Below are positions 1 through 19,752 of a stretch of DNA of 33,534 bases, piece after piece. The stretch's first letter is position 1. The number at the start of each line of letters is the position of its first letter. The notes under the pieces were generated by a model. It made no database searches, was not told the origin of the DNA, and saw nothing but the letters and a program-made list of their open reading frames with translations. A program made the translations under genes and the position numbers. The stretch is from Nitrospirota bacterium (GTDB lineage: Bacteria > Nitrospirota > Thermodesulfovibrionia > Thermodesulfovibrionales > JdFR-85). The stretch spans positions 1 to 33,534 of the forward strand of contig WFTX01000073.1 in the NCBI GenBank assembly GCA_015485235.1. Direction: 5' to 3'.

Positions 1-1287
1 ATATTCGGAAATTCTGCATTAATGTATCATTTAACAAATGTCCTCCTGCATTCTCTGAATTCCATTATGGTTTTTTTGCTAACGAGTTTTATTTTTCGCA
101 GGTTTTTCAATGACTCTCGAACGGTATACCCTTTGATGGCTTCTTTTTTGTTTGCAATACATCCTGTTCATGCTGAAGCTGTTCTTTGGATATCTGCTGT
201 TGGAGAACTGTGTATGACTTTTCTGGTGCTCCTTTCTTTTTATTTATACATTAAAACCGAAAGTGGGGGATTCATAAAAAGCATTCTCTCTGCCCTTTGT
301 TTCCTGGCAGCACTTCTGTTTAAACTGACAGCACTTACGCTTCTTCCCCTTCTCATGATCTATGATATATTACTAAGATATGCTTCATTAAAGTCATGGT
401 TAAAACATCTCAGGCAACTATCCACCTCTTATCTTCTATTTATGGTTGTGTTGATATCATTTGTTGTCTTGCGTTACTATGCGATAGGAGGTTTTGTTCC
501 TGTCCTAACAAAATCGTCATATGATATCTTCTCTGTTTTATTGAATGCCGCTGTACTTTTAAGCCAGTATTTCTTGATGCTTGTTTACCCACATAGTCTG
601 AATATAATTCATGTGTTTCATCCTGTAAGGGGCCTGTTAGATTTCAATGCAGTATTCGGCTTAGCCGCTATTTTTTTATTCGGTATATTGTTGTTTTTTT
701 CAAGAAAAAACAGACCGCTATTTTTTTTCCTTCTGTGGATATTTTTCCCTCTTTTGCCTGTGCTTTATTATCCGGCATTTGTGAATGACTATGTGTTTGC
801 AGAAAGATATCTATATTTACCTTCGGTCGGATTTTTTGTTGTAGTAGCCATTGTTTTTAACGTATTTTCACACAGATTGCATCGGTTATATGCGTTTGCT
901 GGATATGGTATTTTACTTGTCTTCTCCATATATTCTTTATATACCACGATCACAAGAGTTCCTGTATGGCGCAATGATTTTACATTATGGACGGATACCC
1001 TGAAGAAATCTCCTGATAGTTTTACTGCTCATAATAACATTGGTATTATTTATCTGGAAAGGGGGGAATTTATAGAGGCTGAAAAGCACTTTAAAGAAGC
1101 CATTGCCCTCTTCCCAAACTTTGCCGAAGCATATGTGAATCTGGGTAATGTGTTTTACAAACAGGGGATGTTTGATAGAGCACAGAATGCCTATGAAACC
1201 GCATTGTTGATTGTGCCAGGCTACAAGGATGCAATTTATAACCTTTCATTGGTAAGGATGTTGTATGAGAAGCAACAAAGCAATTGA
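1..1287 (+). CDS. 5'-truncated polytopic membrane protein, GT-C / TMTC-like (PMT-type, DUF1736-like) glycosyltransferase with C-terminal TPR repeats
   Basis: Frame 1 is open from base 1 (IFGNSAL precedes the first Met at 22), so the gene runs off the window. It has about 10 hydrophobic helices and the HPVHAEAVLWISA motif typical of TMTC/PMT-like enzymes. Three TPR units follow (NNIGIIYLERGEFIEAEKHFKEAIALFPNFAEAYVNLGNVFYKQGMFDRAQNAYETALLIVPGY). Stop codon at 1285-1287. Confidence 0.8.
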   Translation: MFGNSALMYHLTNVLLHSLNSIMVFLLTSFIFRRFFNDSRTVYPLMASFLFAIHPVHAEAVLWISAVGELCMTFLVLLSFYLYIKTESGGFIKSILSALCFLAALLFKLTALTLLPLLMIYDILLRYASLKSWLKHLRQLSTSYLLFMVVLISFVVLRYYAIGGFVPVLTKSSYDIFSVLLNAAVLLSQYFLMLVYPHSLNIIHVFHPVRGLLDFNAVFGLAAIFLFGILLFFSRKNRPLFFFLLWIFFPLLPVLYYPAFVNDYVFAERYLYLPSVGFFVVVAIVFNVFSHRLHRLYAFAGYGILLVFSIYSLYTTITRVPVWRNDFTLWTDTLKKSPDSFTAHNNIGIIYLERGEFIEAEKHFKEAIALFPNFAEAYVNLGNVFYKQGMFDRAQNAYETALLIVPGYKDAIYNLSLVRMLYEKQQSN

Positions 1288-1469: not shown

Positions 1470-2405
1470 ATGCGATTAATTCAGAGTCTCCATCTACTAT
1501 TACTTTATTCTACAAGCTATTTATTTTCAGCAACTCGTATGGTTTTTTTCTTAGCCATAATCTTGCTCTTCACGTGTCCATCATACTCTGCTATTACAAA
1601 GATCTCCGGCAAGGATGGCATAGAGATGGTTCTTGTCCCTGAAGGCCCGTTTTACATGGGTAGCGAGGGAGAGAACTTCCCGGAAGATGAAAAACCAAGG
1701 CATGAGGTCTATATCAAGGCATTTTATATGGATAGATATGAGGTGACAAACAGGTCCTTCTCCGAGTTCCTTAACAGAGTGATCGCAGGTGGAGAGGGCG
1801 AAAAAAAGAGAAGAGAATGGGTGGTGATCAGAAACGACCTGGATACCACTGAAAGAGCAAACTGGTTCCCCACCGAGATAGAGTTTCGAGAGGGTAAGTA
1901 CCTTCCAATTCGAGGATATGAAGATTCCCCGGTAATAACCGTTTCGTGGTATGCTGCTGAAGCGTATTGCAAATGGGCAGGGGAGAGGTTGCCGACAGAG
2001 GCTGAATGGGAGAAGGCCGCAAGGGGAGGGCTCAGGTATCGTGATTTTCCATGGGGTAACCAGGTCCCGACCCTTGAAAGCGGGGTGGTCTTCGGGAGAG
2101 TCTGGAATGACAATACCATGCCGGCGCCGGTAAACAGGGTGGGGAATTACCCTCCCAACGGGTACGGTATATACGATATGGCAGGGAATGTTCAGGAGTG
2201 GTGCGCTGACTGGTATATGCCGGATTACTATAAAAGTTCACCCTACCGGAACCCGACCGGCCCTGTTAAGGGGATCCTTAAAGTCATGCGTGGAGGCTCC
2301 TGGCTTTCAGTCCCCGGGGGGCTGAGGGTCGGCGCCAGGTATGCCGTAAAGCCCTCAGCCCTGTTTAATACTAACGGGTTCAGATGTGTGAAAGAAGCAG
2401 AATGA
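1470..2405 (+). CDS. formylglycine-generating enzyme (SUMF1/FGE-sulfatase, DUF323) family protein, secreted
   Basis: Family signatures are seen: RYEVTNRSFSEFL, VSWYAAEAYCKWAGERLPTEAEWEKAARGG, GNVQEWCADWY, MRGGSW and GFRCV. N-terminal hydrophobic signal present. AAGGG lies about 12 nt before the ATG at 1470. An alternative start is at 1539. Confidence 0.85.
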   Translation: MRLIQSLHLLLLYSTSYLFSATRMVFFLAIILLFTCPSYSAITKISGKDGIEMVLVPEGPFYMGSEGENFPEDEKPRHEVYIKAFYMDRYEVTNRSFSEFLNRVIAGGEGEKKRREWVVIRNDLDTTERANWFPTEIEFREGKYLPIRGYEDSPVITVSWYAAEAYCKWAGERLPTEAEWEKAARGGLRYRDFPWGNQVPTLESGVVFGRVWNDNTMPAPVNRVGNYPPNGYGIYDMAGNVQEWCADWYMPDYYKSSPYRNPTGPVKGILKVMRGGSWLSVPGGLRVGARYAVKPSALFNTNGFRCVKEAE

Positions 2406-5155: not shown

Positions 5156-5213
5156 TGGTGGAATGTTTTTTGCTTTAATCTTTATTAGGGTAATATGTGA
5201 GGAAGGAGAAGAA

Positions 5214-6236
5214 ATGATGAATACGTTTAAAGGAGCCATTATGTCAGCACTTTTGGTGCTTAGTGCAATCTTTCTGTTTGTCTCCTGTGCTACACCACCT
5301 GAACGGATTGAAGAGAGTGAGTATGTCTGGCCCCTTCCGCCCGAGAAACCAAGGGTGAGATACGTGAAGAGCCTCTGGGGTGAGGAGGATGTCAGGAAGT
5401 CGGCTCCATCAGATTTCATAGTCGGCAAGGACCCTTCCACAGACCTCTTCAAACCCTATGGTCTGGCAACTGATTACTCTGGACGCATCTTTGTTACTGA
5501 TACTGTGAGAAGGGTGGTGTTTGTTTTTGATGAATTGATGGGGGATCTGAAGTTCCTGGGACTTCATGATCTGCCGCTTGGTGTTCCTGCTGATGTGGTT
5601 GTTGATCAGAAGGAGAGGGTCTTTGTGTCTGACGCAGGGAGGGACAGAATAGTTGTATTTGATCTGGATGACCGGATCCTCAATCAATTTGGACAAGGTG
5701 TGCTTGATAATCCTGCCGGAATGGCGATTGACGAGGGTCGCCAGAGACTCTATGTTGTATCAACTCATACCCACTCAGTTGAAGTGTTTTCCCTTGAGGG
5801 GAAACATCTTTTCAGATTTGGCGGGCATGGTGCAGGTCCCGGGCAGTTCAACTATCCCATGGACATAGCTGTAGGCCCGACAGGTGATCTCTATGTGGTG
5901 GACAGTGCCAACTTCAGGGTGCAGATTTTCACAAGTGAAGGTGATTATGTCAGGGAGTTTGGTACTCTTGGAACAGGGCCCGGACAGTTCTCAAGACCTA
6001 AAGGGATTGCTGTTGATCAGGCAGGAAGGATATTTGTCACCGACGCCTCGTTCAACAACTTCCAGATATTCAACGATATGGGGCAGCTCCTTCTCTTTGT
6101 CGGGACGGGCGGGGTTACAGGCCCGGGCGAGTTCTCACTTCCAGCGGACATCGAGGTGGACGGCCAGGGGAGAATATACGTAGCAGATCAGCTCAACAGA
6201 AGGGTTCAGGTCTTTGAAATGATCAGGGATAAATAA
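5214..6236 (+). CDS. NHL-repeat (six-bladed beta-propeller) lipoprotein, paralog 1
   Basis: The listed ORF starts at 4950 and overlaps the cytochrome gene. AAGGAG lies 6 nt before the ATG at 5214, which gives a lipoprotein signal (MMNTFKGAIMSALLVLSAIFLFVSC|A). NHL repeats recur, for example GPGQFNYPMDIAVGPTGDLYVVDSANFRVQIF, GPGQFSRPKGIAVDQAGRIFVTD and GPGEFSLPADIEVDGQGRIYVAD. The VWPLPPEKPRV motif follows the lipobox. Confidence 0.9.
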   Translation: MMNTFKGAIMSALLVLSAIFLFVSCATPPERIEESEYVWPLPPEKPRVRYVKSLWGEEDVRKSAPSDFIVGKDPSTDLFKPYGLATDYSGRIFVTDTVRRVVFVFDELMGDLKFLGLHDLPLGVPADVVVDQKERVFVSDAGRDRIVVFDLDDRILNQFGQGVLDNPAGMAIDEGRQRLYVVSTHTHSVEVFSLEGKHLFRFGGHGAGPGQFNYPMDIAVGPTGDLYVVDSANFRVQIFTSEGDYVREFGTLGTGPGQFSRPKGIAVDQAGRIFVTDASFNNFQIFNDMGQLLLFVGTGGVTGPGEFSLPADIEVDGQGRIYVADQLNRRVQVFEMIRDK

Positions 6237-6275: not shown

Positions 6276-6629
6276 ATGAGCAGAAATTCAAAACAGTATG
6301 ATCTGGAGGAGAGAACATTCATCTTTGCAAAAGAAGTAATCGACCTGGTAGATGATGTATCAAAAAGCCTGGTTAACCTGGAGATTGGTAAGCAACTTGT
6401 CCGTGCTGCTGGTTCTGTAGGTGCAAATCATATTGAAGCGAATGAATCTTTGAGCAAGAAGGATTTTATAATGCGGATAAAGATATGCAGGAAGGAATCC
6501 AAGGAGTCAAGATACTGGTTGAATTTGCTTAAATATAGGGATGGAATGGATGGCCGGAGGGATGCCCTTATTCAGGAAGCTACAGAACTGATGAAGATAT
6601 TTGGCGCCATCCTGGAGAAAAGCAAATAA
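6276..6629 (+). CDS. four-helix-bundle protein (TIGR02436 / Pfam 23S_rRNA_IVP family; Avd-like)
   Basis: 117 aa. Family-typical layout: FEERxFxFAxxV-like N-terminus (YDLEERTFIFAKEVIDLV), QLVRAAGSVGANHIEANES, FIMRIKICRKESKESRYWLNLL. Confidence 0.88.
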   Translation: MSRNSKQYDLEERTFIFAKEVIDLVDDVSKSLVNLEIGKQLVRAAGSVGANHIEANESLSKKDFIMRIKICRKESKESRYWLNLLKYRDGMDGRRDALIQEATELMKIFGAILEKSK

Positions 6630-6719: not shown

Positions 6720-7799
6720 GTGAATAGAATAATGATACTGCTTATGTCCTTTCCCGTTGTCTTTGCCCTGCTCCTTACAGGTTGTGTCTCCCAGCAGAAA
6801 GAGGTAAAGAAAAAAACGGAACCTTTGAAGGAGATTGTCTGGCCTCCCCCCCCTGAAAAACCAAGGGTGAAATGGGTGGCCCAGTACAGGGGAAGCGACG
6901 ATGTCGAGCAGGGACCGGATGTGTTGAAGTTTCTTGGAGAGCAGAGGATTGTACGACTCAGACGGCCTCAGGGAATAGTAGCTGACAGGGATGGAAATAT
7001 ATATGTCTCGGATATTGCAACTCCTCCAAGAGTGTTTGTTTTTGATTTCAAGAACAATAAATTCAGGGTGTTTGGCAGAAAGGGTATAATGAAGTTAAAG
7101 ATTCCACTGGGACTTGCAATTGACAATGACAGGAGGCTTCTTTTTGTTGCTGACAACGGCCACAAGGCCGTAATTGCCCTGGATATAGATTCTGATTCCA
7201 TTAAGTTCGTTATAGACAGTCAAAGGGGTGGTTTTAAAAATCCCAACTCGGTGGCAGTCGATCCTCAAAGAAAGCGCATATATGTCTCTGACTCGAAACT
7301 CCATGTTGTCAAAGCGTTTAGCTATGATGGCAATCTTCTTTTTACTATCGGAAAGGGAAAGCGGACAACAGATGATGATGGTTTTAACGTTCCAGCCTCC
7401 GTTTCTGTTGACAGAGAAGGAAATGTGTACGTCGCCGATATGTTCAACAGATATATAAAAATCTTTGACTCCAATGGCCAATTTGTCAAAAAAATAGGTT
7501 ATGGTGTTGGTACGGGACTCGGGAACTTTTCCAAACTCGTTGGAGTTGCAGTTGACTCGGAAGGACATATATATGGACTGGATACTGACTTCTGTAATTT
7601 CCAGATCTTTGATCAGGATAATAACTTTCTTCTTTTCGTAGGAGAGCCCGGGACCAGGGTCGGCAAGTTTCTGCTGCCAAAGCGGATTTACATAGATGAG
7701 AACGACATGATTTATGTAAGTGATACCTTTAATCACAGGATTCAGGTTCTTCAGTATCTCAGAGACGAAAGCAGTAAAAATAGGTCAGGACAGCAATGA
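6720..7799 (+). CDS. NHL-repeat lipoprotein, paralog 2
   Basis: GTG start with AGGAGG 8 nt upstream. The signal and lipobox read MNRIMILLMSFPVVFALLLTGC|V. The VWPPPPEKPRV motif is present. NHL repeats include PQGIVADRDGNIYVSD, PNSVAVDPQRKRIYVSD, PASVSVDREGNVYVADMFNRYIKIF and LVGVAVDSEGHIYGLD. Confidence 0.9.
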   Translation: MNRIMILLMSFPVVFALLLTGCVSQQKEVKKKTEPLKEIVWPPPPEKPRVKWVAQYRGSDDVEQGPDVLKFLGEQRIVRLRRPQGIVADRDGNIYVSDIATPPRVFVFDFKNNKFRVFGRKGIMKLKIPLGLAIDNDRRLLFVADNGHKAVIALDIDSDSIKFVIDSQRGGFKNPNSVAVDPQRKRIYVSDSKLHVVKAFSYDGNLLFTIGKGKRTTDDDGFNVPASVSVDREGNVYVADMFNRYIKIFDSNGQFVKKIGYGVGTGLGNFSKLVGVAVDSEGHIYGLDTDFCNFQIFDQDNNFLLFVGEPGTRVGKFLLPKRIYIDENDMIYVSDTFNHRIQVLQYLRDESSKNRSGQQ

Positions 7800-7886
7800 A
7801 AGCATGAACCGTATAAGAAGCAGATTACGAAGTGTTCAGTGTAACCCGTGTTTTTTCCCTGTAACTGTTTCCATAGTTCAATCTAC

Positions 7887-7902
7887 TGTGTGAAAACACA
7901 CA
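7887..7902. promoter_or_regulatory. palindrome TGTGTG-AAAA-CACACA, possible activator site upstream of the sigma-54 promoter at 8054
   Basis: Perfect 6+4+6 palindrome about 150 bp upstream of the -24 element. Position fits an enhancer-binding-protein UAS, but this is a motif-only call. Confidence 0.3.
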
Positions 7903-8053
7903 TTCGGAGTTATTTCCCACATAAAATGAAGGACTTCCAAAAAAGGCCTAAGGTCATATGAACCATTTTGTGGGTTAAATAAGGTTTGTCGGTTATGTTA
8001 CTTATTGAAAAATAAACATATTTCACTAATGCTTCAAATATCTCTTCCGCTTC

Positions 8054-8069
8054 TGGCACGTGAGTTGCA
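8054..8069 (+). promoter_or_regulatory. sigma-54 (-24/-12) promoter for tetrahaem cytochrome A
   Basis: TGGCAC-gtgag-TTGCA matches the TGGCAC-N5-TTGCW consensus exactly. It lies about 100 nt upstream of the ATG at 8170. Confidence 0.75.
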
Positions 8070-8169
8070 TATATTAATGCAATAGAAACAAGGACATGAT
8101 TCAGGAGGTGTGATTATGAGAAAGATAATGTTTGATTCTTATAAATCCCTAATGAAAGGAGGTGAACAA

Positions 8170-8826
8170 ATGAAAAGGATTCTCGTACTCGCAGCTATAC
8201 TCACCCTTGTGATGGCTGGTGCAGCCTTTGCGGGTGTCTCCGGTACGCTCCATGACCTGAGCGGTGGCACAGGCCAGATCTGTGTTGCCTGTCATACCCC
8301 TCACGGTGCCCAGTCAAGCTCCAATGGTCCGCTCTGGAACAGGAACTACGACAACTCCGCCACTACCTACACCACTTACACAAATACCGGAACCTTTGAT
8401 ATGGGTCCTGTGGTCGGTCTTGGCCCTCAGTCACTGGCGTGCCTCAGCTGTCACGACGGTACTGCATCCCAGCTTGTGAACTATCCCGGGCCTGGTGCAG
8501 CCAACTCCAACTACGATCTGACTTCAACAAGTTTCAACAATCAGAACAACAACTCACTCATCAACACTGACCTTACCGATGACCATCCCGTTGGTTTTGT
8601 TTACAACCCCGGTGCGGATGCACAGGTCAACAACTTCCCGACTGCGGTTAATGGTGTGATTGCCAATGTCTTTCCGCTCTATGGTGCTTCCAACAATACC
8701 TTTGAGTGCGCAACTTGCCATGATGTGCATAATATAGCACATCCTGCACGGGATCCCGTGTACTTCCTCAGGACGAGCAATAACCAGTCCGCACTTTGTG
8801 GTGCTTGCCACACAGCTAAACTCTAA
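8170..8826 (+). CDS. small secreted tetrahaem c-type cytochrome, paralog A
   Basis: AAAGGAGGTG lies 7 nt before the ATG at 8170, so the listed start at 8110 is an unsupported extension. The signal is MKRILVLAAILTLVMAGAAFA|G. Four CXXCH motifs: CVACH, CLSCH, CATCH, CGACH. Blocks shared with 16693 and 18981: HDLS, CxxCHTPHGA, PLWN, CLSCHDG, NxPGPG, DHPV, CxTCHDxH. Confidence 0.92.
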   Translation: MKRILVLAAILTLVMAGAAFAGVSGTLHDLSGGTGQICVACHTPHGAQSSSNGPLWNRNYDNSATTYTTYTNTGTFDMGPVVGLGPQSLACLSCHDGTASQLVNYPGPGAANSNYDLTSTSFNNQNNNSLINTDLTDDHPVGFVYNPGADAQVNNFPTAVNGVIANVFPLYGASNNTFECATCHDVHNIAHPARDPVYFLRTSNNQSALCGACHTAKL

Positions 8827-8862
8827 TATATTAAGTGAATCGGGAGAAAGGCAAGATTTTTT

Positions 8863-8897
8863 AAAAGGAGCGGGTTTGAAACCCGCTCCTTTTATTT
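8863..8897 (+). terminator. Rho-independent terminator after tetrahaem cytochrome A
   Basis: A 13-bp stem pairs aaaaggagcgggt (8863-8875) with acccgctcctttt (8881-8893) around a 5-nt loop. It is followed by a T-rich tail (ttttatttg). Confidence 0.85.
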
Positions 8898-9018
8898 GCT
8901 TCAATAAGTAATGTTGTCTGCATACAGACACCAAGAAAGCCCTTTTGTTGTTACTTTGCTGTTAGACGTCAATTAGGTGCTAAACTAAACGGGGAATAAA
9001 TAAGGAAGTTCTGACTTG

Positions 9019-10809
9019 ATGGGCACAGGTATAAATGAAAAATTCAGTCCTCTATTGGGGAAACTCCTTGTCTTTGTTTTTTTTATTGTCTTTGCCATTT
9101 CAATAGTTCGCCCTATCATCGATCCTGATCTCTTCTGGCACCTTGCCACTGGCAAGTGGATCGTCGAGCATAAAACCTTGCCTGCAGAAGATCCCTTTTC
9201 CTTTACCACCCAACGATATGCCTATGAAGAGTTCGACAGGACCAGGTTCATCCTAAGGCAATACTGGCTGGGTCAGATAATAATATATCTTTGTAACCAA
9301 ATGGCAGGATACTGGGGCAATATAGGATTCAGGGTAATTCTTTTCCTGGGCATACTCTTTCTGCTTAATCGATGGTTGAAGGAAGATAATATTGACCCTT
9401 TAGCGCGGGTTTTGTTTCTTGTGCCTTCAGGAATGATACTCAGTCTTTTTGTCGGTGACCGTCCCAACCAGATGACTTATCTGTTCTCCGTGATCATGTT
9501 CTATCTGCTAAAAAAATATCGACAAGGCGAAAATAGAGCGGGTTACCTGATGATCCCGGTGATGATCCTCTGGTCAAACATACATGGCGGGTTCATATTG
9601 GGTGATGTCTTGCTTGTAATTAGCCTCTCCCTGGCTTGTATAAGTTATCTTGTAAGAACAAAAGAGGGGAAATCAAACGCTGATATCGCCAAAAAGGGAG
9701 CACTCAGGGATGTCGTCGTTTTTAGCTCTTCAATTCTTGCCTCCTTTGTTAACCCAAATCATATCAAGGTGGTTTTTACCCTTCTGGAATCCCGGTCCTT
9801 TTATAAGTTCAGCGTCTTCGAAAACCTTACGCCTTTTCAGTATATGCAATATGGACAGAATATGTACGTTTATATCTTGGTGCTTTACCTTGTTATATTG
9901 TCTCCTGCGATTCTGTTAGCTTACAGACGAGATAAAAAAGGGGGTATTTTCTTTGGTTTAACGGCGTTATTTCTTACGGGACTTTCCACTATGGGAGTCA
10001 GATACATGCCTTTTACAGCACTTCTTCTTACACCCCTTGTTGCAAGAGAATATGGACCATATATCAACAGAGGCAAAGGTGTTGTATTTAAGGCCGTAAT
10101 TGCCTTAATAATCCTCTCTGTTTTTATATACAATGCCAGATCTCCTCTCCTGAAAGCCGGGAGATCTTTGCCACCATTAAGTTCAAACTTTCCGACTAAT
10201 ATAGTCCGGTTTGTAAAGAGTGAGGGCATCAAAGGCAATGTTTTCAATACATATTCCATTGGTGGATACCTCATATGGACACTTTATCCAGATGTGAGAG
10301 TATTCATAGATGGAAGAGGACTGGTGCAAAGGGTATTTTACGCATATAAGAGAATTGTGAAAGGAGATCAGAGCATTATTGAGGGTGTGCCTGTCTGGAA
10401 GGCCCTACTCGAGAGTTATAAGATAAAATACGCGCTCATAGAGCCGACTGATATTATTGGTGGAATGAGGGATATAGTTATACGGCTTGTTGAGGATCCT
10501 GAGTGGAGGCTTAATTACATTGATGAAGTATCCAATGTGATGTTATTCTCCAAAGATCCTGCGTTGCAGGAAATCCCTGGCATCCTTGCTTATGCCGATA
10601 TTTTGAAGATTTCTCTCCTGAATGTAAGAAACATGCCCGACAACCCGCAGGGGTATGTTACTCTTGCAAAGATTTATACTCTACTTGGAAAAAGAGGAAG
10701 AGCTATTGCTACCCTTGAGGGAGCGATAAGAAACCATCCTGCATGGGGGGAGGGCTTCATAGGTCAACTGCTTGATTATATAAAGAAAAACGAGATCGTA
10801 AGGTGGTGA
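9019..10809 (+). CDS. large polytopic membrane protein, GT-C-like (ArnT/PMT-style) putative glycosyltransferase with soluble C-terminal domain and TPR-like tail
   Basis: About 12-14 hydrophobic helices. An acidic first-loop motif (IIDPDLFWHLATGKW) resembles the DxD/ExD loop of GT-C enzymes. The C-terminal ~200 aa are soluble and end in a TPR-like helix pair (YVTLAKIYTLLGKRGRAIATLEGAIRNHP). The ATG at 9019 directly follows the TTG at 9016. Family assignment is tentative. Confidence 0.7.
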   Translation: MGTGINEKFSPLLGKLLVFVFFIVFAISIVRPIIDPDLFWHLATGKWIVEHKTLPAEDPFSFTTQRYAYEEFDRTRFILRQYWLGQIIIYLCNQMAGYWGNIGFRVILFLGILFLLNRWLKEDNIDPLARVLFLVPSGMILSLFVGDRPNQMTYLFSVIMFYLLKKYRQGENRAGYLMIPVMILWSNIHGGFILGDVLLVISLSLACISYLVRTKEGKSNADIAKKGALRDVVVFSSSILASFVNPNHIKVVFTLLESRSFYKFSVFENLTPFQYMQYGQNMYVYILVLYLVILSPAILLAYRRDKKGGIFFGLTALFLTGLSTMGVRYMPFTALLLTPLVAREYGPYINRGKGVVFKAVIALIILSVFIYNARSPLLKAGRSLPPLSSNFPTNIVRFVKSEGIKGNVFNTYSIGGYLIWTLYPDVRVFIDGRGLVQRVFYAYKRIVKGDQSIIEGVPVWKALLESYKIKYALIEPTDIIGGMRDIVIRLVEDPEWRLNYIDEVSNVMLFSKDPALQEIPGILAYADILKISLLNVRNMPDNPQGYVTLAKIYTLLGKRGRAIATLEGAIRNHPAWGEGFIGQLLDYIKKNEIVRW

Positions 10810-11047: not shown

Positions 11048-11063
11048 TGGTCTGAAAATTGCA
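11048..11063 (+). promoter_or_regulatory. sigma-54-like promoter upstream of the DUF1670-like/OMP operon
   Basis: TGGTCT-gaaaa-TTGCA has correct GG-N10-GC spacing and a perfect -12 TTGCA, but a weaker -24 element. It lies about 140 nt upstream of the ATG at 11205. Confidence 0.5.
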
Positions 11064-11468: not shown

Positions 11469-11834
11469 ATGAATTTCGGAACGATTGAATATATATGCGA
11501 AGTGTCCGATAAGAATGAGAAGGGCTACAGGGTTTTGAACCTTACCCTTGTGGATGAGGAAGACGGTGATATCTTTAGGGAAAACGGACTCATGGAACTC
11601 AGACGCAGGCGGATATTGAGACTTGTGAGGGAGGCAGCCGAACAGGGTTGTACCCTTTCTTACGGTGACTTGGCAAAAATACTTCTCACCTCTGTTGCAA
11701 CCCTTAAAAGGGATATTGTGGTTCTGGAGAAGAGAGGGGAGTACATTCCGCTTCGGGGGAGGAGAAAATATCCCTTGGACGAGGGAGAGAAGAAAAAGGT
11801 TATATCTGATATGATAAAGGACAGGGTGGGATGA
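11469..11834 (+). CDS. DUF1670-like helix-turn-helix protein, repeat unit 2
   Basis: Same frame as the previous ORF, separated only by TAG-AGA. The core LRRRRILRLVREAAEQGCTLSYGDLAKILLTSVATLKRDIVVLEKRGEYIPLRG is present. The stop overlaps the next start (ATGA at 11831-11834). Confidence 0.7.
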   Translation: MNFGTIEYICEVSDKNEKGYRVLNLTLVDEEDGDIFRENGLMELRRRRILRLVREAAEQGCTLSYGDLAKILLTSVATLKRDIVVLEKRGEYIPLRGRRKYPLDEGEKKKVISDMIKDRVG

Positions 11835-13822
11835 AGGGGCTTTCTCGCATTGCTGATACATTCAGAATGAACCCATCTGGCTGGTTTTGTCAGCCAGTGG
11901 TTTTTTTTATTGCTTTATTGTTTCTTTTCTTTGAGCCAGCTCTGAGCAACATTGTTTCCGAGAAGGGAAATTTCTCTCAGGCTGGCATGGCTGAAGCACG
12001 TTCAATGGGCGGCGAGTCCGAAATCAGGTGGCTGTTATACAAGAAATATCTGATCTATGGAGATATCGGACTGGAATATGAGAAACAAACGAGGGAGACT
12101 ACTCAGGATGATGTAACAACAAAGTATGACGCTGACAGTTTTGTTCAGAGATACAGGGTGAATTTTAAAAGTTACATTTATCATCCCAAACTGGTTACTT
12201 ATACCCTGGGAGTAGACTTGAACCTGACTTCAGGAGAACTTAACAGGATAGATCTCAAACGGTATTTTATGAATCTTAAGTTTCTCAGAACCAAGCCATT
12301 CAATTTTGAAATCAGGGCTGAATATCGAGATGGTGAGGACTATACCGGTTTCAGCCAAGGGGTTACGATGGTTTATATCAGGAAGAGAAAGAAAATAGGA
12401 TTCAGAAACATGCGGGAATATACTCTATGGCTCAACCAGCAGAGACTTAACAGAAGAAACCAGAACCAGAACCAGAATCAAAATCAGAATCAGAACAGAA
12501 ATAATGCCAATCTTAATCAGGAAAATCTGAACCAGGAAAAAGAAAATCAGAATACAAACAGAAATGCTAACCAGAATATTATGAACAGGACCATTCCCAA
12601 ACCAAAGAGAAGTCTTATCGACAGGGTGCTTCCTGTAATATTTATATTTGATTTTGACCGCATTCAGAGCTCAACTGATGATGGTGATACAACTGATTAT
12701 CTTGGGACACTACGCATGAAGGGAGATTTCAAAACTGAAAAAACCCGCACCAACTATTTTCTGAATTTTTCCTATTATGACCTTACCAGTGACTTTAGTG
12801 AAGATTCCACTAAATTTACTTTCTCCGCAAAATCACTGACTACAATCAATAAAATAGATAGAATGGAGTGGGAAGCCCGCTATAGCCTCAGGGAAAAAAG
12901 TTCATCTGAAAATTCATATAGTATTGATGGCACCTACTCGGGTTATTTCAAGGATAAGATCTGGAATTATCAGTTGAATCTAAGATATTATCAAAGAGAA
13001 GGAGATACAAGCTATTCATTAATCGGTTATGCCGGAAGAAAAGATGAATACAAGAACTTCCATCTTTTGTACCGTCTGGGTGCCAAGTACCAAAGGGATG
13101 ACCTTATCAATAAGGATAATATAGGGGTTTTTGGTACCATAACGGCTAACCGGAGACTTTCTGCTCGTCAGTCGCTTCTGCTTTCCTCAAGACTGGATGT
13201 TGGAACCGAAACAAACATACTGAATGCAAGGGCGGAAACGAGGTATATACTTTCCAGTAAACTTCTTTTATTTGGAAGCTATGACTTTTTTACCGGTACT
13301 GGAAATTATACTTATGAACTTGGTGGTGCTGCTGATGACCGAACACGGCACCAGATCAGAATTGGTCTGAATGGAAACTACAGGTCTGTATTTTTCCATT
13401 CGATTTTGTCCTACTTGTATCAAGATAGTAGTAACTCCATACTTTGGGATAACGCAGCGAGATGGGTCTTTTTCAACAGGGTCAGGTTCACACTCGGTCT
13501 CAGGGCAGAATGGCATGACACCACGAATGCTGGTGATAATACGGAAGGCTTGAATAATACAGATAAGGAAACTACCATCTCCGTATATAATCTTATCATG
13601 TTTTCTCCATGGTACAGATCGGCTGTCAGAATATACAGTCGCTATGAAAAAACCATTAATGGTAAAGAGTCAACGCATTACAATGTAAAACCTGAGTTTA
13701 TTTGGAGGATTCGGAGATTGTATCTGAGTATGAGATACGAATATATTTATGACAAAGTCCTTTCTAACGAGATCACAGAGCAGAAATTCTATGTGCGTCT
13801 CACAAGGCCCTTCTGGTTTTAG
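11831..13822 (+). CDS. predicted outer-membrane beta-barrel protein (663 aa) with N/Q-rich low-complexity insert
   Basis: An N-terminal hydrophobic signal (VVFFIALLFLFFEPALS) is present. Long runs of alternating aromatic/polar strands occur (YRVNFKSYIYH, YFLNFSYYDL, YQLNLRYYQ, RYEYIYD). The C-terminus ends in an aromatic residue (RLTRPFWF), as in BAM substrates. The start is translationally coupled to the upstream ORF. Confidence 0.8.
   Translation: MKGLSRIADTFRMNPSGWFCQPVVFFIALLFLFFEPALSNIVSEKGNFSQAGMAEARSMGGESEIRWLLYKKYLIYGDIGLEYEKQTRETTQDDVTTKYDADSFVQRYRVNFKSYIYHPKLVTYTLGVDLNLTSGELNRIDLKRYFMNLKFLRTKPFNFEIRAEYRDGEDYTGFSQGVTMVYIRKRKKIGFRNMREYTLWLNQQRLNRRNQNQNQNQNQNQNRNNANLNQENLNQEKENQNTNRNANQNIMNRTIPKPKRSLIDRVLPVIFIFDFDRIQSSTDDGDTTDYLGTLRMKGDFKTEKTRTNYFLNFSYYDLTSDFSEDSTKFTFSAKSLTTINKIDRMEWEARYSLREKSSSENSYSIDGTYSGYFKDKIWNYQLNLRYYQREGDTSYSLIGYAGRKDEYKNFHLLYRLGAKYQRDDLINKDNIGVFGTITANRRLSARQSLLLSSRLDVGTETNILNARAETRYILSSKLLLFGSYDFFTGTGNYTYELGGAADDRTRHQIRIGLNGNYRSVFFHSILSYLYQDSSNSILWDNAARWVFFNRVRFTLGLRAEWHDTTNAGDNTEGLNNTDKETTISVYNLIMFSPWYRSAVRIYSRYEKTINGKESTHYNVKPEFIWRIRRLYLSMRYEYIYDKVLSNEITEQKFYVRLTRPFWF
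12458..12496 (+). repeat. in-frame hexanucleotide microsatellite (AACCAG/AATCAG)n encoding (NQ)n inside the OMP gene
   Basis: The sequence reads aaccag aaccag aaccag aatcaa aatcag aatcag aac. The wider N/Q/E-rich tract runs to about 12576 (NQNQNQNQNQNQNRNNANLNQENLNQEKENQNTNRNANQN). Confidence 0.85.
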
Positions 13823-14027: not shown

Positions 14028-14044
14028 TTATGAAAGGAGTCTTG

Positions 14045-15007
14045 ATGAAAAACAGTATATCTGTCTTAGTTGTTTTGTTGATGATTCTCGTATCTCCCCT
14101 CAGCAGCCTTGCTGGAGTGAAAGTTGTTGCCAGGGTTAACGGTGAACCCATAACCGAGCGGGATCTGATGATTGCGGTTCAGAAGAAGATTCCCATGATA
14201 AGTTTTCACAGAAACGTCTCTAAGGAAAAGCTGATGGCTATAAAAAAGGATGTTCTCCAGGATCTGATAAACGATGAACTGATTTACCAGGATGCGAAGG
14301 GAAAGGTGGCCGTTTCGGAGGAGGAACTTGAAAAGGAGATGGAGAAGGTAAGAAAGAGGTTCAAATCTGAGAAGGACTATAAACAGGCGATCGTGAAGTC
14401 AGGCACGACTGAATCGGCCTTGAAGGAGAGATACAGACGGGAACTTATGATCAGGAAAATGAAGGAGAAGGAAATTTACAGAAAGGCAGAGGTGACCGAG
14501 GCTGAGGCAAGAAGGTACTATGAACAGAACAAGGGTCGATTCCTTGCGCCTGAAAAACTGAAACTCTGGGAGATTTTCCTTGAGGTTCCGCCTAACGCTA
14601 CCAGGGAAGAGAGGGAGGCGAAGAGGAAAAAGGCGGAGGAGATACTCCAGAGAATCAGGAAGGGTGAGGACTTTGGCCGGCTTGCGTGGGATTATTCTGA
14701 AGACCGCTATAAATACAAGTCCGGGGAATTAGGGTATATCCACCGTGGAAGGCTCAATCCTGAAGTGGAAAGGGCACTCAAGAATGTTAAAGCGGGTGAG
14801 ATAACAGATGTTATTGAAACAATCTACGGTTATTACATCTTCAAGGTGGGTGAGATTGTTCCGCCGAAGCAGCTCTCCTTTGATGAGGCCAAGAAAAAAC
14901 TTATCCGCCAGTTGCGGGAGTCACGGGCAAAAAAATTAAGAGAAGAGTACTTAAAGAGACTGAGGAAGAAGGCGAAGATAGAGATATTCATGGAAAAAAC
15001 AGGTTGA
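14045..15007 (+). CDS. SurA-like periplasmic chaperone / parvulin-type (PpiC) peptidyl-prolyl cis-trans isomerase
   Basis: AAGGAG lies 6 nt before the ATG at 14045; the listed ORF begins at 14030. The signal is MKNSISVLVVLLMILVSPLSSLA|G. A SurA_N-like helical region is followed by a rotamase core (LWEIFLEV...GEDFGRLAWDYSED...GELGYIHRGRLNPEVERAL...GEITDVIETIYGYYIFKV). Confidence 0.88.
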   Translation: MKNSISVLVVLLMILVSPLSSLAGVKVVARVNGEPITERDLMIAVQKKIPMISFHRNVSKEKLMAIKKDVLQDLINDELIYQDAKGKVAVSEEELEKEMEKVRKRFKSEKDYKQAIVKSGTTESALKERYRRELMIRKMKEKEIYRKAEVTEAEARRYYEQNKGRFLAPEKLKLWEIFLEVPPNATREEREAKRKKAEEILQRIRKGEDFGRLAWDYSEDRYKYKSGELGYIHRGRLNPEVERALKNVKAGEITDVIETIYGYYIFKVGEIVPPKQLSFDEAKKKLIRQLRESRAKKLREEYLKRLRKKAKIEIFMEKTG

Positions 15008-15029: not shown

Positions 15030-15395
15030 TTGTACAGGGATTTCAGAGAAATGCCAGTCTGGCAAACAGCGATGCAGGTAGCAACAGAAATTTATGAATT
15101 GACAGAAGAATTACCCCGTAAGGAGGATTTTTGCTATACAACACAGATAAGGAAGGCTGCCCTGAGTATCCCGGCCAATATTGCAGAGGCATTTGGTCGT
15201 GAGCATAGTAAAGATAAAATTAACTTTTATTATTTTGCCAGGGGTTCGATAATGGAAACCATCAGTCACCTGGAGTACGGAAAGAGAGTTAATTATTTAA
15301 GTGAAGAAAGTGTCAGATCAATAAGTAATTTGCTTGAAACACTGGCTGCAGACCTGAACAAGTTGATAAAATCTCTAAGAAGTAATAAAGGGTGA
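15030..15395 (+). CDS. four-helix-bundle protein (TIGR02436 / 23S_rRNA_IVP family; Avd-like), TTG start
   Basis: The N-terminus YRDFREMPVWQTAMQVATEIYELT matches the family's YxDLxVWQKA-type start, which supports the TTG at 15030. Further matches: IRKAALSIPANIAEAFGR, FYYFARGSIMETISHLEY. Confidence 0.85.
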   Translation: MYRDFREMPVWQTAMQVATEIYELTEELPRKEDFCYTTQIRKAALSIPANIAEAFGREHSKDKINFYYFARGSIMETISHLEYGKRVNYLSEESVRSISNLLETLAADLNKLIKSLRSNKG

Positions 15396-15399
15396 TAGC

Positions 15400-16518
15400 A
15401 TGAGAAATTGTATTCATCATATACCAGTGAAACTTTCAACTTCTGCCGTTACCTTTTTCCTCTCCTTAACCTCAACCTTAACCTCAACCTTGGCCTTAAC
15501 CTTGGCCTCAACCTTGGCCTTAACCTTCGGTTTATTCTCCTGCTCTCCCCCGGTCCACCACGCCCAGATTGATGATTCTTACAGGGGAAAGCTCGTCTGG
15601 CCGCCACCACCTGAGAAGCCCCGGATAGAGTATCTCTGGTCCTTTTACAAGTTTCTGCCGGAAGGCAGAAACCTTGCCGACTATGTGGCAGGTGAACAGG
15701 GCGGCCTTGATGATCCGGCAACACTGCCCTATCTGATGAGACCGTTCTCGCTTTTTGTCAGAGAAGGCAGGATATATATTGTCGATCAGGGCCCTCCCCG
15801 GATTACAGTGCTAAATATGAAGACAAGGGAGGTGTCTCACTTCGGGGTTTCCGGTGAAGGCAAACTTGTTTTTCCAGTGGGCATAGTGGTTGGTGCCGAT
15901 GGGACCGTATATGTGAGCGATGCTGAGACAGGCAGGGTGAACAGGTATGACCGGCAGGGGAAGTTTATCGGATATCTCCCGGAAAAGATGGCATTCAGGA
16001 GACCGACAGGCCTCGGGATTGATTCTGAAGGCAATATCTATGTTGCCGATACATCAGCACACAGGATAAGGATATATTCACCGGACGGGAAACTTATCAG
16101 AAAGTTTGGTAAAAGGGGCAGCAAGGACGGGGAACTGAACTTTCCCACTCACCTCTGGGTCAAGGGTGAAAAGATATATGTCACAGATGCGATGAATTTC
16201 CGTATCCAGATATTCAACAAAGAAGGGCAGTTCCTGGGGAAGTTCGGACAACCCGGTGATACCTATGCCGATCTTGAAAGGCCCAAGGGTGTTGCAGTTG
16301 ACTCCTTTGGCCATATCTATGTGGTTGATACCCTTCAGGCAAGGGTGAAGATCTTTGACGAAAAGGGGAGGATCCTGCTCTTCTTCGGGGAAGAGGGCCG
16401 TTCCCCCGGAAAGTTCATAATGCCTGCTGGCATATTTATAGATGACAGTAATACAATATATGTTGCAGATACTTACAATATGAGGGTCCAGGCATTCAGG
16501 CTGCTGGACGGGAAGTAA
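15400..16518 (+). CDS. NHL-repeat lipoprotein, paralog 3; signal-peptide h-region encoded by a reversed M1 simple repeat
   Basis: The lipobox is TFGLFSC|S and the VWPPPPEKPRI motif follows. NHL repeats include PVGIVVGADGTVYVSDAETGRVNRY, PTGLGIDSEGNIYVADTSAHRIRIY, PKGVAVDSFGHIYVVDTLQARVKIF and PAGIFIDDSNTIYVADTYNMRVQAF. Residues LSLTSTLTSTLALTLASTLALT are translated from 15461-15538. Confidence 0.88.
   Translation: MRNCIHHIPVKLSTSAVTFFLSLTSTLTSTLALTLASTLALTFGLFSCSPPVHHAQIDDSYRGKLVWPPPPEKPRIEYLWSFYKFLPEGRNLADYVAGEQGGLDDPATLPYLMRPFSLFVREGRIYIVDQGPPRITVLNMKTREVSHFGVSGEGKLVFPVGIVVGADGTVYVSDAETGRVNRYDRQGKFIGYLPEKMAFRRPTGLGIDSEGNIYVADTSAHRIRIYSPDGKLIRKFGKRGSKDGELNFPTHLWVKGEKIYVTDAMNFRIQIFNKEGQFLGKFGQPGDTYADLERPKGVAVDSFGHIYVVDTLQARVKIFDEKGRILLFFGEEGRSPGKFIMPAGIFIDDSNTIYVADTYNMRVQAFRLLDGK
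15461..15538 (-). repeat. reversed GGTTGAGG-type module (M1); right inverted arm of four-helix-bundle cassette 2, lying inside the NHL paralog 3 ORF
   Basis: The sequence ctccttaacctcaaccttaacctcaaccttggccttaaccttggcctcaaccttggccttaaccttcgg has 6-nt periodicity. It is complementary to M1 copies at 15001, 13841, 16521 and 17496. Confidence 0.85.
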
Positions 16519-16671: not shown

Positions 16672-16692
16672 CCCATAGTGAGGTGTAAGTTA

Positions 16693-17481
16693 ATGAAGAA
16701 GGTGGTTAGCGCTGTTGTTACAGTGATTTTCATACTCTCGGTTGCGGTCGTGGTATGGGCCGGTATTGCAAATACAAAGCATAACCTCTCAGTAACCGGG
16801 CCGGGAACTATAAAGGCAGTAAGTGAGACGAGGATCTGTGTCTTCTGTCATACACCCCACGGTGCAAGCCCTGCAAGGCCCCTCTGGAACCATACATTGA
16901 GTTCCCAGACGTATACACTGCCTACTTCTTCAGACCCACAGTGGTCCAATCTCCTCACTACGGTCCAGCAGCCTGACGGGGACACAAGGCTCTGTCTGAG
17001 CTGTCACGACGGTACAGTGGCTATAGGTTCGGTAGTGAACCTTCCCGGTCCGGCAGGTGGCGCCGGTACAATATCCATGCAGGGTACAGCCGGTGGTCTC
17101 ATGCCACCAGCTGCTTATGGTTTTATAGGAACCGATCTCTCCGGCACACACCCCGTTTCCATTGCGATGAATGATGCCTTGATCAATGACAAGAATGCCT
17201 GCACACAGACCGGAGCTTACACGCTACAGTACCCTCCTGGAGGAGGGGCCGTCAGGCTGAGGCCAACGAGCAACACCTATAACGGTCAGCCCGGACAGTT
17301 GATAACTACTCCAACTGGTTTTACATACAATGGAGGGGTTCAGTGTACTTCGTGTCATGATCCCCATATTGAAACAACGGATTTCCTTGTCCTTGGTACA
17401 GGAAGTCCTGATCCCACAAAGGGGCATCCAGGCAACTGGTCTGCCCTGTGTGATACGTGTCACCCGGGTACATGTCCGTGA
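16693..17481 (+). CDS. small secreted tetrahaem c-type cytochrome, paralog B
   Basis: GTGAGGTG lies about 8 nt before the ATG at 16693. The signal is MKKVVSAVVTVIFILSVAVVVWA|G. Four CXXCH motifs: CVFCH, CLSCH, CTSCH, CDTCH. It shares the blocks KHNLS, CVFCHTPHGA, PLWN, CLSCHDG, NLPGPAGG, HPVS and CTSCHDPH with paralogs A and C. Confidence 0.92.
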   Translation: MKKVVSAVVTVIFILSVAVVVWAGIANTKHNLSVTGPGTIKAVSETRICVFCHTPHGASPARPLWNHTLSSQTYTLPTSSDPQWSNLLTTVQQPDGDTRLCLSCHDGTVAIGSVVNLPGPAGGAGTISMQGTAGGLMPPAAYGFIGTDLSGTHPVSIAMNDALINDKNACTQTGAYTLQYPPGGGAVRLRPTSNTYNGQPGQLITTPTGFTYNGGVQCTSCHDPHIETTDFLVLGTGSPDPTKGHPGNWSALCDTCHPGTCP

Positions 17482-17647: not shown

Positions 17648-18637
17648 ATGAAAAAAGCAATCAAAACAGTACTGCTGACAATAGCTGCTTTCATTATGGC
17701 TTCTTCAGGGATCAGGGCTGAGACTCCTACCCATCTCAATGGTTTCAAGGTAAAGTTTACCTGTGCAGCATGCCATAGCGGTCATGGTAAAAGAGGAACC
17801 CCGATGCTGCGGGAAGATGTCCCGGACCTTTGCTACGAATGTCACGGTCCTTCGGGTTACGCCTACTTTAATACTTCCAATGAGGTTTATTATGAATTCC
17901 TGAAGAGATACCGGCATCCTGTTGAAGAGACTGGAAGGTACCACAGACAGACTGAGATACTTCCGGAAAGGGAAAGGCTGGTTGAGAGACATGTGAGCTG
18001 CCTTGACTGTCATAATCCGCATGTTTCAACACCATCCGAGCCTAATGCCGGAGTCCCCGGTGAATCTCTGAACCGGATAAGGCAAAAGCCGGCGGAGAAT
18101 ATAAACGATATATGTTTCAAGTGCCATTCCGACAACTTGAATAGACCACCATCAAGCCTTGATGTCAAAGAAGAATTTGATACTTTAAATCCCTCATACC
18201 ATCCGGTACTGGGGGTTTCGAGAGGAAGGAGCGTAAGCGTTCTGCCTGAGCTGAAGGGAAAAACCATAGGATGTACAGACTGCCATACCCCCCATGGCTC
18301 GGATTATGAGGATATGCTTAGATACAATTATAACCGCTCAGATGGACCGGAAACAGCTTTTTCCTATGCACTGTGCTACCAATGTCACAAGAGAGATAAT
18401 ATACTTGGAGATCGGGGATTCAGCCAGCACAGGAGGCATATAGTTTTTGAAAACGCATCTTGCAGGGCCTGTCACATTGCCCATGGCAGCAGTGAAAATG
18501 CGAGGCTCATAGGCTTTGACCCTGCCATAGTTACTCCCAACTCACAGGGCATGCTTCTTTATGAAAGAATCGGAGGTGAAAGTCGTTGTTTCCTTCGCTG
18601 TCACGACACGGACCACAGGGGTGATAAGATCCAATAG
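17648..18637 (+). CDS. octahaem c-type cytochrome (7 CXXCH + 1 CX3CH), periplasmic-type
   Basis: The signal is MKKAIKTVLLTIAAFIMASSGIRA|E. Haem motifs are CAACH, CYECH, CLDCH, CFKCH, CTDCH, CYQCH, CRACH and the atypical CFLRCH at 18587-18604. Spacing between motifs is of the doubled-CXXCH type. Confidence 0.92.
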   Translation: MKKAIKTVLLTIAAFIMASSGIRAETPTHLNGFKVKFTCAACHSGHGKRGTPMLREDVPDLCYECHGPSGYAYFNTSNEVYYEFLKRYRHPVEETGRYHRQTEILPERERLVERHVSCLDCHNPHVSTPSEPNAGVPGESLNRIRQKPAENINDICFKCHSDNLNRPPSSLDVKEEFDTLNPSYHPVLGVSRGRSVSVLPELKGKTIGCTDCHTPHGSDYEDMLRYNYNRSDGPETAFSYALCYQCHKRDNILGDRGFSQHRRHIVFENASCRACHIAHGSSENARLIGFDPAIVTPNSQGMLLYERIGGESRCFLRCHDTDHRGDKIQ

Positions 18638-18906: not shown

Positions 18907-18980
18907 TTCTAATCTTACAGGCATACTTTTGTATATGTTTGTATATGACTGTTTCATGATAATTTAAGGAGGATATCGAG

Positions 18981-19691: not shown

Positions 19692-19752
19692 GTGAGTGAA
19701 ATCACGCAAATTGGGTAATTATACACAACAGGATTATTTAAGGAGGAAGAAG

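Follow-up and report, generated by a model that had tools for sequence, protein, structure and literature searches.

A sigma-54-type, terminator-bounded gene for an OmcE-family tetrahaem cytochrome within a nanowire-type gene cluster of a Nitrospirota bacterium

A 33.5-kb stretch of DNA from a Nitrospirota bacterium (contig WFTX01000073.1; the whole stretch is referred to here as the window) contains a gene, here called A (8170-8826, + strand), for a small secreted cytochrome, with a sigma-54 (RpoN)-type promoter element in front of it and an intrinsic terminator behind it. The locus raises the question of whether A encodes a structural subunit of an extracellular cytochrome filament, as the first-pass annotation had argued from the layout of the unit and by analogy. 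We found that A is a member of the OmcE family, which includes two nanowire proteins of solved structure, and that it is encoded in the type of gene cluster in which such proteins are found. The unit 8054-8901 is probably a free-standing cassette from which the major subunit of an OmcE-type extracellular nanowire would be expressed; we infer polymerisation from homologues.

When the protein was compared with the PDB by phmmer (matches at E ≤ 10), it matched 9yuq_N (E 1.6e-27, residues 1-215) and 7tfs_A (E 1.3e-20, residues 5-215) over its full length, and every Cys and His ligand was aligned. 9YUQ is the OmcE nanowire bundle of Desulfuromonas soudanensis WTL (bioRxiv 10.1101/2025.10.22.684050), an entry of 16 chains of 198 residues with 64 bis-His haems and inter-chain His-haem ligation, and 7TFS is the OmcE nanowire of Geobacter sulfurreducens; the rise of OmcE is 34 Å. 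An AlphaFold2 model, computed from 120 homologues and free of haems, had a mean predicted local distance difference test (pLDDT) score of 82.4 and a predicted template-modelling (TM) score of 0.76, and it was mostly coil, with a few short helices and little strand; OmcE has been reported to be mostly coil (bioRxiv 10.1101/2025.10.22.684050). A Foldseek search of the PDB with this model (E ≤ 10) had 7TFS as its sole match (E 6e-8, TM scores 0.63/0.68, 32% identity). Because full-length PDB matches, the 7TFS fold match and the conserved ligands described below all agree, we conclude that A is an OmcE-family member by sequence, fold and ligand set. The search for homologues of A gave 3535 matches, the nearest of which were 70-50% identical in their alignments, and the named ones among these were annotated as Nitrospirota or Thermodesulfovibrionales metagenome-assembled genomes.

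Two other identities were examined and rejected. The first-pass annotation had set its filament proposal against a closed, c3-like globular fold with no similarity to filament subunits. The Cytochrom_CIII profile scored 18.1 bits against a cut-off of 22.9, over residues 176-216 only, and no cytochrome c3 was among the Foldseek matches; the Pfam and NCBIfam matches to A were short, C-terminal paired-CXXCH or c7 matches. The wider comparison with filament subunits held for OmcE and failed for the others, as OmcS (6EF8) and the archaeal subunits PcECN (8E5F) and AvECN (8E5G) were absent from the matches of both the PDB sequence search and the Foldseek search.

As annotated, the product of A is a secreted protein of 218 aa with a signal peptide and four CXXCH motifs. 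The signal peptide aligns with that of D. soudanensis OmcE, whose mature chain in 9YUQ comprises 198 of 218 residues. The annotation had also counted five His residues outside the CXXCH motifs, and these are H28, H45, H139, H187 and H191, giving nine His in total for four haems. In the alignment of 120 homologues from which the conservation of residues was judged, H28, H45, H139 and H187 were invariant, a number that is enough for bis-His ligation of all four haems. They align with KHDLS, CHTPH, NDHP and CHxVH, respectively, of 7TFS and 9YUQ, with H28 falling on the KHDLS His of both solved filaments, and they match the four distal ligands marked as conserved across OmcE homologues (bioRxiv 10.1101/2025.10.22.684050). 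H191 (8740-8742), four residues after H187, lies in a column that is not conserved among the 120 homologues and is shared in common only with the closest relative. Since it is not conserved, we treat it as incidental, and it probably has no ligand role.

The ninth His matters for one alternative, in which A is a minor filament component (a 'stopper' or tip) and the bulk of the filament is made from paralog C, a second OmcE-family gene in the window, or from some OmcE-family gene outside the window. A protein with nine His and four haems has been proposed to bear the signature of an ideal stopper, which is expected to be encoded in the cluster of the major subunit (bioRxiv 10.1101/2025.10.22.684050), and A has exactly this composition. 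The signature does not extend to the cluster orthologues of A in six Nitrospirota-type metagenome loci (L001, L002, L004, L005, L007 and L009), however, each of which lacks H191 and has eight His. We return to this alternative with the evidence on paralog C.

We scanned both strands of the window for sigma-54 promoter elements. The consensus TGGCAC-N5-TTGCA element that had been annotated is present, and the pattern TGGCAC-N5-TTGCW has a single exact match in the window, TGGCACGTGAGTTGCA, which lies 100 nt upstream of the ATG of A, within a 370-nt gap. A looser pattern, TGGYAY-N5-YTGCW, has two matches (0.33 expected), the second of which is at 18891, upstream of paralog C. Transcription of A is predicted to start near 8080, with a leader of ~90 nt. 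A -24/-12 element was found in all seven of the Nitrospirota cluster sequences, that is, in the window and in L001 (AGGTATGCATATTGCA), L002 (TGGTATGCAATTTGCT), L004 (TGGTATGATATTTGCA), L005 (TGGTATGATACTTGCA), L007 (TGGTATGAAAATTGCT) and L009 (TGGCATGAAAATTGCT), at a distance of 64-100 nt from the start codon. An alignment of the DNA upstream of five A-type genes, each from a different locus, showed only two conserved blocks, the -24/-12 element, in which GG-N10-GC is invariant together with TTGC, and the Shine-Dalgarno sequence (AAGGAGGTGAA); the flanking intergenic DNA has diverged.

We also surveyed the window and 81 OmcE-family loci (82 sequences) for strong sigma-54 sites, defined as those scoring at least 17.5 of 19.5 and lying no more than 300 nt upstream. 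Such a site was present in 30 of the 82 sequences, against ~0.02 expected per sequence from the background in the same DNA, which is an enrichment of ~18-fold, and the 30 include sequences from Geomonas, Oryzomonas, a Geobacter metagenome-assembled genome and Desulfuromusa. A gene for an NtrC-type sigma-54 activator precedes or adjoins the Desulfuromusa cluster (L021). A search for an activator-binding site upstream of A-type genes gave no convincing shared motif. There is a perfect palindrome, TGTGTGAAAACACACA, at 7889-7904, ~165 nt upstream of the sigma-54 element of A, and ATTTCAC/GTGAAAT half-sites (8022-8029 in the window) are found repeatedly ahead of the promoter in several orthologous loci; either could be a candidate activator-binding site. 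Further sigma-54-like -24/-12 sites lie in other gaps of the window, at 5159-5174 (before the first NHL gene), 11048-11063 (before the DUF1670 and barrel genes) and 18891-18906 (before C), and in related loci before barrel and peptidyl-prolyl isomerase (PPIase) genes (L001 10775-10790; L002 10870-10885 and 13346-13360). The entire supercluster may be an RpoN regulon.

The ribosome-binding site was correctly annotated as strong: AAAGGAGGTG, 5 nt before the ATG at 8170, is the strongest Shine-Dalgarno sequence among the cluster genes. The public gene call for A uses an in-frame ATG further upstream, at 8116, which gives a protein of 236 aa, and a second Shine-Dalgarno sequence and ATG (AGGAGGTGTGATTATG) are present at 8103-8118, in frame and 54 nt upstream of the preferred start. 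Initiation at 8116 would add 18 aa before the signal peptide; a similar extension is present in one close homologue and missing from the others. We kept the start at 8170 because homologues of A begin with MKR or MKK at the equivalent position and because only the Shine-Dalgarno sequence before 8170 is conserved.

Downstream of A, a terminator with a clean 13-bp stem had been proposed. The hairpin is present at 8862-8894, and our terminator scan paired 15 bp in its stem; its folding energy is -26.8 kcal/mol (z = -5.9 against shuffled sequences). In nine other loci, the stop codon of the A-type gene is followed within 3-36 nt by a strong hairpin of unrelated sequence (L001, L002, L004, L005, L007, L009, L021, L031 and L078). 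An Rfam scan of 7700-9100 gave no match at gathering score, and the terminator hairpin accounted for every weak match. Between the cluster genes there is just one further strong + strand terminator, at 31855, after the last giant cytochrome gene, and in the remaining intergenic gaps of the cluster a promoter-like and a terminator-like element are both lacking, so that the proposal that A is the only monocistronic unit of the locus is supported at the level of prediction.

Could the sigma-54 and terminator motifs be chance matches, with A co-transcribed with its neighbours from a promoter that we did not recognise? Consensus scans are by themselves no evidence of function, a scan that allowed one mismatch returned at least three matches in 16 of 100 shuffled sequences, and the genes for RpoN and an activator are not in the window. 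Yet the 11-base consensus has just one exact match in the window, at a promoter-like distance in a long gap, the element is the only conserved block besides the Shine-Dalgarno sequence in otherwise diverged upstream regions, and it is matched by the enrichment across the 82 loci and by the recurrence of terminators at the same place in nine other loci. We regard chance as a highly improbable explanation. Because the sigma-54 element is conserved and enriched and because terminators of unrelated sequence recur, the stand-alone, sigma-54-driven, terminator-bounded layout appears to be real and conserved by function rather than by sequence. Such a layout fits a stoichiometrically abundant product.

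'Nanowire-competent' OmcE homologues have been restricted to those encoded with a large outer-membrane β-barrel and a β-propeller lipoprotein, and the minimal omcE cluster consists of two multihaem cytochromes, two propeller lipoproteins, OmcE and the barrel (bioRxiv 10.1101/2025.10.22.684050). The window contains a predicted barrel, propeller lipoproteins and multihaem cytochromes, in the order formylglycine-generating-enzyme (FGE)-family gene, 396-aa cytochrome, two NHL propellers, A, 597-aa membrane protein, DUF1670/helix-turn-helix gene, 663-aa barrel, SurA-like chaperone and a third NHL propeller, followed by paralog B, a 329-aa cytochrome (cyt329), paralog C, a BACON/FG-GAP/NHL protein and two giant cytochromes. 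The order FGE, cytochrome, NHL, NHL, A, barrel, SurA, NHL, B, cytochrome, C, BACON is full or nearly full in L001, L002, L004 and L007 and partial in L005 and L009, and the two NHL lipoproteins upstream of A are syntenic in all six of these loci. In a canonical Geobacter omcE cluster (L078), which is located downstream of resB, the order is cytochrome, cytochrome, NHL, OmcE, NHL, a 779-aa barrel-like open reading frame (ORF) ending in Phe, and a TPR membrane protein homologous to the first ORF of the window. A thus sits in the cluster type that is tied to OmcE nanowires, and the annotation's proposal of a filament-type cytochrome now stands on homology to both solved OmcE filaments, the 7TFS fold, the invariant His residues and this cluster.

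The barrel itself has no match to a known family. Its AlphaFold2 model has 28 long antiparallel strands, and its position is conserved in related loci. In Foldseek the model matched nothing but large outer-membrane barrels (among them FecA, MtrB, FimD and LptD), each with a low TM score. An exhaustive HMMER search of 1.84 billion representative proteins detected 14 relatives, from which the model was built. According to the model, the 663-aa protein is a large barrel of no known family. Its residues ~205-255 form an Asn/Gln-rich low-complexity insert (NQNQNQ...), modelled as a low-confidence helix.

The first-pass annotation had treated paralogs B and C as candidate polymerising cytochromes alongside A. 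Both are OmcE-family proteins, and both retain all four distal His. In neighbour-joining bootstrap trees, the G. sulfurreducens and D. soudanensis OmcEs paired in 94 of 100 replicates, and A, B and C appear from their sequences to be three old lineages of one family. For B, the evidence points elsewhere. In many phyla a B-type gene has a cyt329-type gene as its neighbour, and the two are fused as one 10-haem ORF of 558-598 aa in L077 (7580-9343), L080 (7530-9326) and L021 (16297-17973); the fusions occur in Geomonas, Oryzomonas and Desulfuromusa, in every case beside and following an NHL propeller and a barrel. Because B is fused to its neighbouring multihaem cytochrome in other lineages, it probably acts with cyt329 as a conduit component rather than as a filament subunit.

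C appears to be co-transcribed with the BACON/FG-GAP protein and the giant cytochromes. That C likewise has a sigma-54-type promoter, and that phylogeny leaves undecided whether A or C is the OmcE orthologue, are the remaining points in favour of A as a stopper or tip. Against them, gene position favours A, because the gene next to the propellers and in front of the barrel, the place held by OmcE in the Geobacter cluster, is A and not C, and the strongest translation signals and a terminator of its own would be unexpected for a minor subunit. With the lack of conservation of the ninth His, we consider a minor role for A unlikely and prefer its identification as the major subunit.

On that identification, subunits of A would, after export and haem attachment, pass through or dock at the barrel and, as in the solved homologues, polymerise head to tail. 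A distal His of one subunit would supply the second His ligand to a haem of the next. We suggest His28 as this inter-subunit ligand, because H45 and H187 each follow a motif His by three residues and because the DHP-region His has been described as coordinating an 'internal' haem (bioRxiv 10.1101/2025.10.22.684050). The result would be a continuous, insulated chain of alternating stacked and T-shaped haems that could carry electrons over long distances to or from minerals or partner cells. RpoN-dependent transcription would be turned on by an enhancer-binding protein whose gene lies outside the window, and the terminator would keep expression of the abundant subunit separate from that of the low-copy machinery genes behind it. 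The barrel, the propellers and the SurA-like chaperone may serve in export or anchoring, a role that has been proposed for the partner genes of OmcE and OmcS (bioRxiv 10.1101/2025.10.22.684050).

Several observations weigh against A being the abundant subunit of a filament. The 32% identity between A and 7TFS over the structural alignment means that polymerisation is extrapolated, and A, B and C joined the solved OmcEs in only 29, 40 and 30 of 100 bootstrap replicates, respectively. Neither an rpoN gene nor an activator gene lies within the 33.5 kb, and the tail after the terminator hairpin (TTTTATTTGCTT) is T-rich with an interrupted T-tract. The effective number of codons of A is the lowest among the cluster genes (44.7), but this codon-bias signal is weak and confounded by the short length of the gene, and the preference for NNC codons is not distinctive. 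Even for Geobacter, it is debated whether cytochrome filaments are the physiological conduits at all (PMC11077965). Finally, the family is very large and many of its members stand alone, so that membership is no proof of filament formation.

This last point is the basis of another alternative, in which A is a non-polymerising OmcE-family cytochrome that acts, as a monomer or bound in a complex, as a periplasmic or surface electron carrier that supplies the porin-cytochrome machinery and the giant cytochromes of the locus. Thousands of proteins belong to the family and filaments have been shown for only two, many Nitrospirota paralogs occur alone, without barrel or propeller genes, and the presence of three paralogs in one locus means that not all of them can be the major filament subunit. 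Against this, A holds the OmcE position in a nanowire-type cluster; it keeps all of the ligands of the filament formers, including the His of the N-terminal arm; and its layout of promoter, Shine-Dalgarno sequence and terminator is conserved across phyla. We find a carrier of this kind conceivable but rather doubtful, and retain the view that A is the major subunit of a filament.

A broader proposal, which we put forward only tentatively and consider doubtful as a whole, is that the locus encodes a multi-part, RpoN-controlled nanowire system in which the three ancient OmcE-family lineages have divided roles. A may be the abundant, sigma-54-driven filament subunit. B and cyt329 may form a haem conduit threaded through the new 28-strand barrel, which would anchor and charge the filament. 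C, with the BACON/FG-GAP surface protein and the giant cytochromes, may make up another filament, or may serve as an adaptor that links the wire to a very large terminal oxidoreductase. If true, this would be a heteromeric architecture undescribed for Geobacter, in a phylum where electron flow could be mineral reduction or lithotrophic electron uptake.

The coordinates of A, its control elements and the surrounding genes are collected in Table 1.

Table 1. Positions in the window of gene A, its control elements and haem ligands, and the neighbouring genes
Feature	Position	Strand	Basis or remark
Polytopic membrane protein with TPR end (first ORF)	22-1287		TPR repeats the only match
FGE-sulfatase-domain gene	1470-2405		Cluster head; also in L001, L002, L005, L007
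Multihaem cytochrome, 396 aa	3965-5155	+	Paired_CXXCH_1 E 4.5e-78; partial DmsE family match; position conserved in related loci
NHL-repeat β-propeller lipoproteins, two	5214-6236 and 6720-7799	+	NHL E 1.5e-30 and 2.9e-25; N-terminal lipobox Cys
Four-helix-bundle genes ('23S rRNA intervening sequence protein', TIGR02436)	6276-6629 and 15030-15395	+	Inserted inside the cluster
Sigma-54 -24/-12 promoter element of A	8054-8069	+	Exact TGGCAC-N5-TTGCA
Shine-Dalgarno sequence of A	8155-8164	+	5 nt before ATG 8170; read from sequence
A, OmcE-family tetrahaem c-type cytochrome, 218 aa	8170-8826	+	phmmer, AlphaFold2, Foldseek
Sec signal peptide of A, 21 aa	8170-8232	+	Cleavage between AFA and GVSG; read from sequence
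His28 (mature residue 7), distal haem ligand in N-terminal arm	8251-8253	+	Invariant in 120 homologues
Haem motif 1 (C38-V-A-C-H42) and distal His45, CVACHTPH	8281-8304	+	C38, C41, H42, P44, H45 invariant
Haem motif 2 (C91-L-S-C-H95)	8440-8454	+	Invariant columns
His139 in DDHP motif, distal ligand	8584-8586	+	H139, P140 invariant; aligns with NDHP of 7TFS and 9YUQ
Haem motif 3 (C180-A-T-C-H184) and distal His187, CATCHDVH	8707-8730	+	Invariant columns
Haem motif 4 (C210-G-A-C-H214)	8797-8811	+	H214 invariant; C210, C213 conserved in at least 90%
Intrinsic terminator of A: 15-bp stem, 3-nt loop, T-rich tail	8862-8901	+	Terminator scan; hairpin 8862-8894
Polytopic membrane protein, 597 aa, TPR-like C-terminal end	9016-10809	+	Conserved cluster partner
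Predicted outer-membrane β-barrel, 663 aa, 28 strands, C-terminus ...RPFWF	11831-13822	+	AlphaFold2 pLDDT 80.9
SurA-like PPIase chaperone	14030-15007	+	Pfam, synteny
Third NHL propeller lipoprotein	15400-16518	+	Pfam, synteny; lipobox present
OmcE-family paralog B	16678-17481	+	7tfs match E 1.9e-19
Multihaem cytochrome, 329 aa (cyt329)	17648-18637	+	Fused with B-type in L021, L077, L080
Second sigma-54-type promoter, TGGCATAAAGTTTGCT	18891-18906	+	Looser consensus match upstream of C
Second sigma-54-type unit (promoter, C, BACON protein, giant cytochromes)	18891-31885	+	Includes terminator at 31855
OmcE-family paralog C	18981-19691	+	7TFS match E 2.6e-21
BACON/FG-GAP/NHL protein, 908 aa	19696-22422	+	In second sigma-54-type unit
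Giant secreted cytochromes, 1713 and 1416 aa	22429-27570 and 27585-31835	+	Many CxxxxCH/CxxCH repeats, TIGR01904

Among the other neighbouring genes, the 597-aa membrane protein is relocated in the window to a position between A and the barrel; in L001, L004, L005, L007 and L009 its homologues occupy other places within the cluster, and a further homologue is present in the Oryzomonas locus L080. It has no Pfam, NCBIfam or PDB family match. The same searches gave no family for the membrane domain of the first ORF, and a GT39-type glycosyltransferase identity was not confirmed for either protein. Polytopic membrane/TPR proteins are conserved partners of OmcE clusters, including those of L078 and L080. 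The two TIGR02436 four-helix-bundle genes are missing from the syntenic loci listed above. The FGE-family gene stands at the head of the cluster both in the window and in four of the six Nitrospirota loci. Elsewhere in the survey set, OmcE-like proteins of similar length have five CXXCH motifs (L021 8643-9269; L046 742-2098; and in L050, L054, L055, L068-L071 and L073), and they match a possible 'leaky' five-haem OmcE-like family described previously (bioRxiv 10.1101/2025.10.22.684050).

OmcE homologues with such a cluster context have already been reported in Nitrospirota, one of five phyla in which OmcE homologues were found (bioRxiv 10.1101/2025.10.22.684050), and the present results leave the known picture of how the filament works unchanged; the finding will not surprise a specialist. 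They add a well-supported OmcE-type nanowire locus outside Desulfuromonadia and indicate that the association with barrel, propellers and cytochromes holds in Nitrospirota, a phylum that is widespread in groundwater and subsurface metagenomes and mostly uncultured. What seems new is the cross-phylum sigma-54/terminator cassette of OmcE-family genes and the fusion of B with cyt329. We found no mention of such a cassette around OmcE-family genes in the literature examined, and omcE is not mentioned in the main text of a study of the G. sulfurreducens RpoN regulon. Because the promoter and terminator bracket OmcE-family genes from Nitrospirota to Geobacteraceae, they would help to predict when nanowires are made, and they offer compact natural expression cassettes for engineering. 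The fusion leads to a testable hypothesis that would sort OmcE-family proteins into conduit parts and filament subunits.

The closest known system is OmcE of D. soudanensis WTL (DSOUD_2954; 9YUQ). Both precursors are 218 aa long, are Sec-exported with a signal peptide of ~20 aa, and share the order of their four CXXCH motifs and four distal His, and both are encoded with multihaem cytochromes, β-propeller lipoproteins and a large outer-membrane barrel. The loops between the motifs, in contrast, are unrelated; the loops of the bundling interface of D. soudanensis OmcE are not conserved in any homologue (bioRxiv 10.1101/2025.10.22.684050). The hosts also differ (Desulfuromonadia there, Nitrospirota here), and the present locus adds two OmcE-family paralogs, a SurA-like chaperone, an FGE-family gene and two giant cytochromes. 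G. sulfurreducens OmcE (GSU0618; 7TFS) resembles A in sequence, is its sole structural neighbour in the PDB, and is likewise mostly coil. The likeness extends to the Geobacter-type locus L078, which has the same kinds of genes, a sigma-54 site before omcE and a terminator after it. One difference is that OmcE carries heavy glycosylation in Geobacter, where many glycosyltransferase genes come after its cluster (bioRxiv 10.1101/2025.10.22.684050); here there are only the two unclassified membrane/TPR proteins.

More distant systems share single aspects. As in OmcS, PcECN and AvECN, an insulated linear haem chain is expected for A, by homology with OmcE, and inter-subunit His ligation is documented for both OmcS and OmcE, but no similarity of sequence or fold between A and these three proteins was detected in the PDB searches. 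The porin-cytochrome conduits (MtrAB and the Geobacter Ext/Omb-Oma-Omc systems) likewise pair a large barrel with multihaem cytochromes in one locus. MtrB was the best length-normalised Foldseek match of the barrel, yet its TM score was only 0.37 and the barrel model here has 28 strands, and the likeness concerns the context genes (probably B and the 329-aa cytochrome) rather than A. With respect to gene organisation, sigma-54-driven, terminator-bounded genes for the major subunits of surface filaments offer a parallel, for example Geobacter pilA, which is under the control of PilR and RpoN. As predicted for A, such a gene is monocistronic: a -24/-12 promoter stands before it, and an intrinsic terminator sets the abundant subunit apart from its assembly genes; unlike pilA, A encodes a cytochrome and not a pilin.

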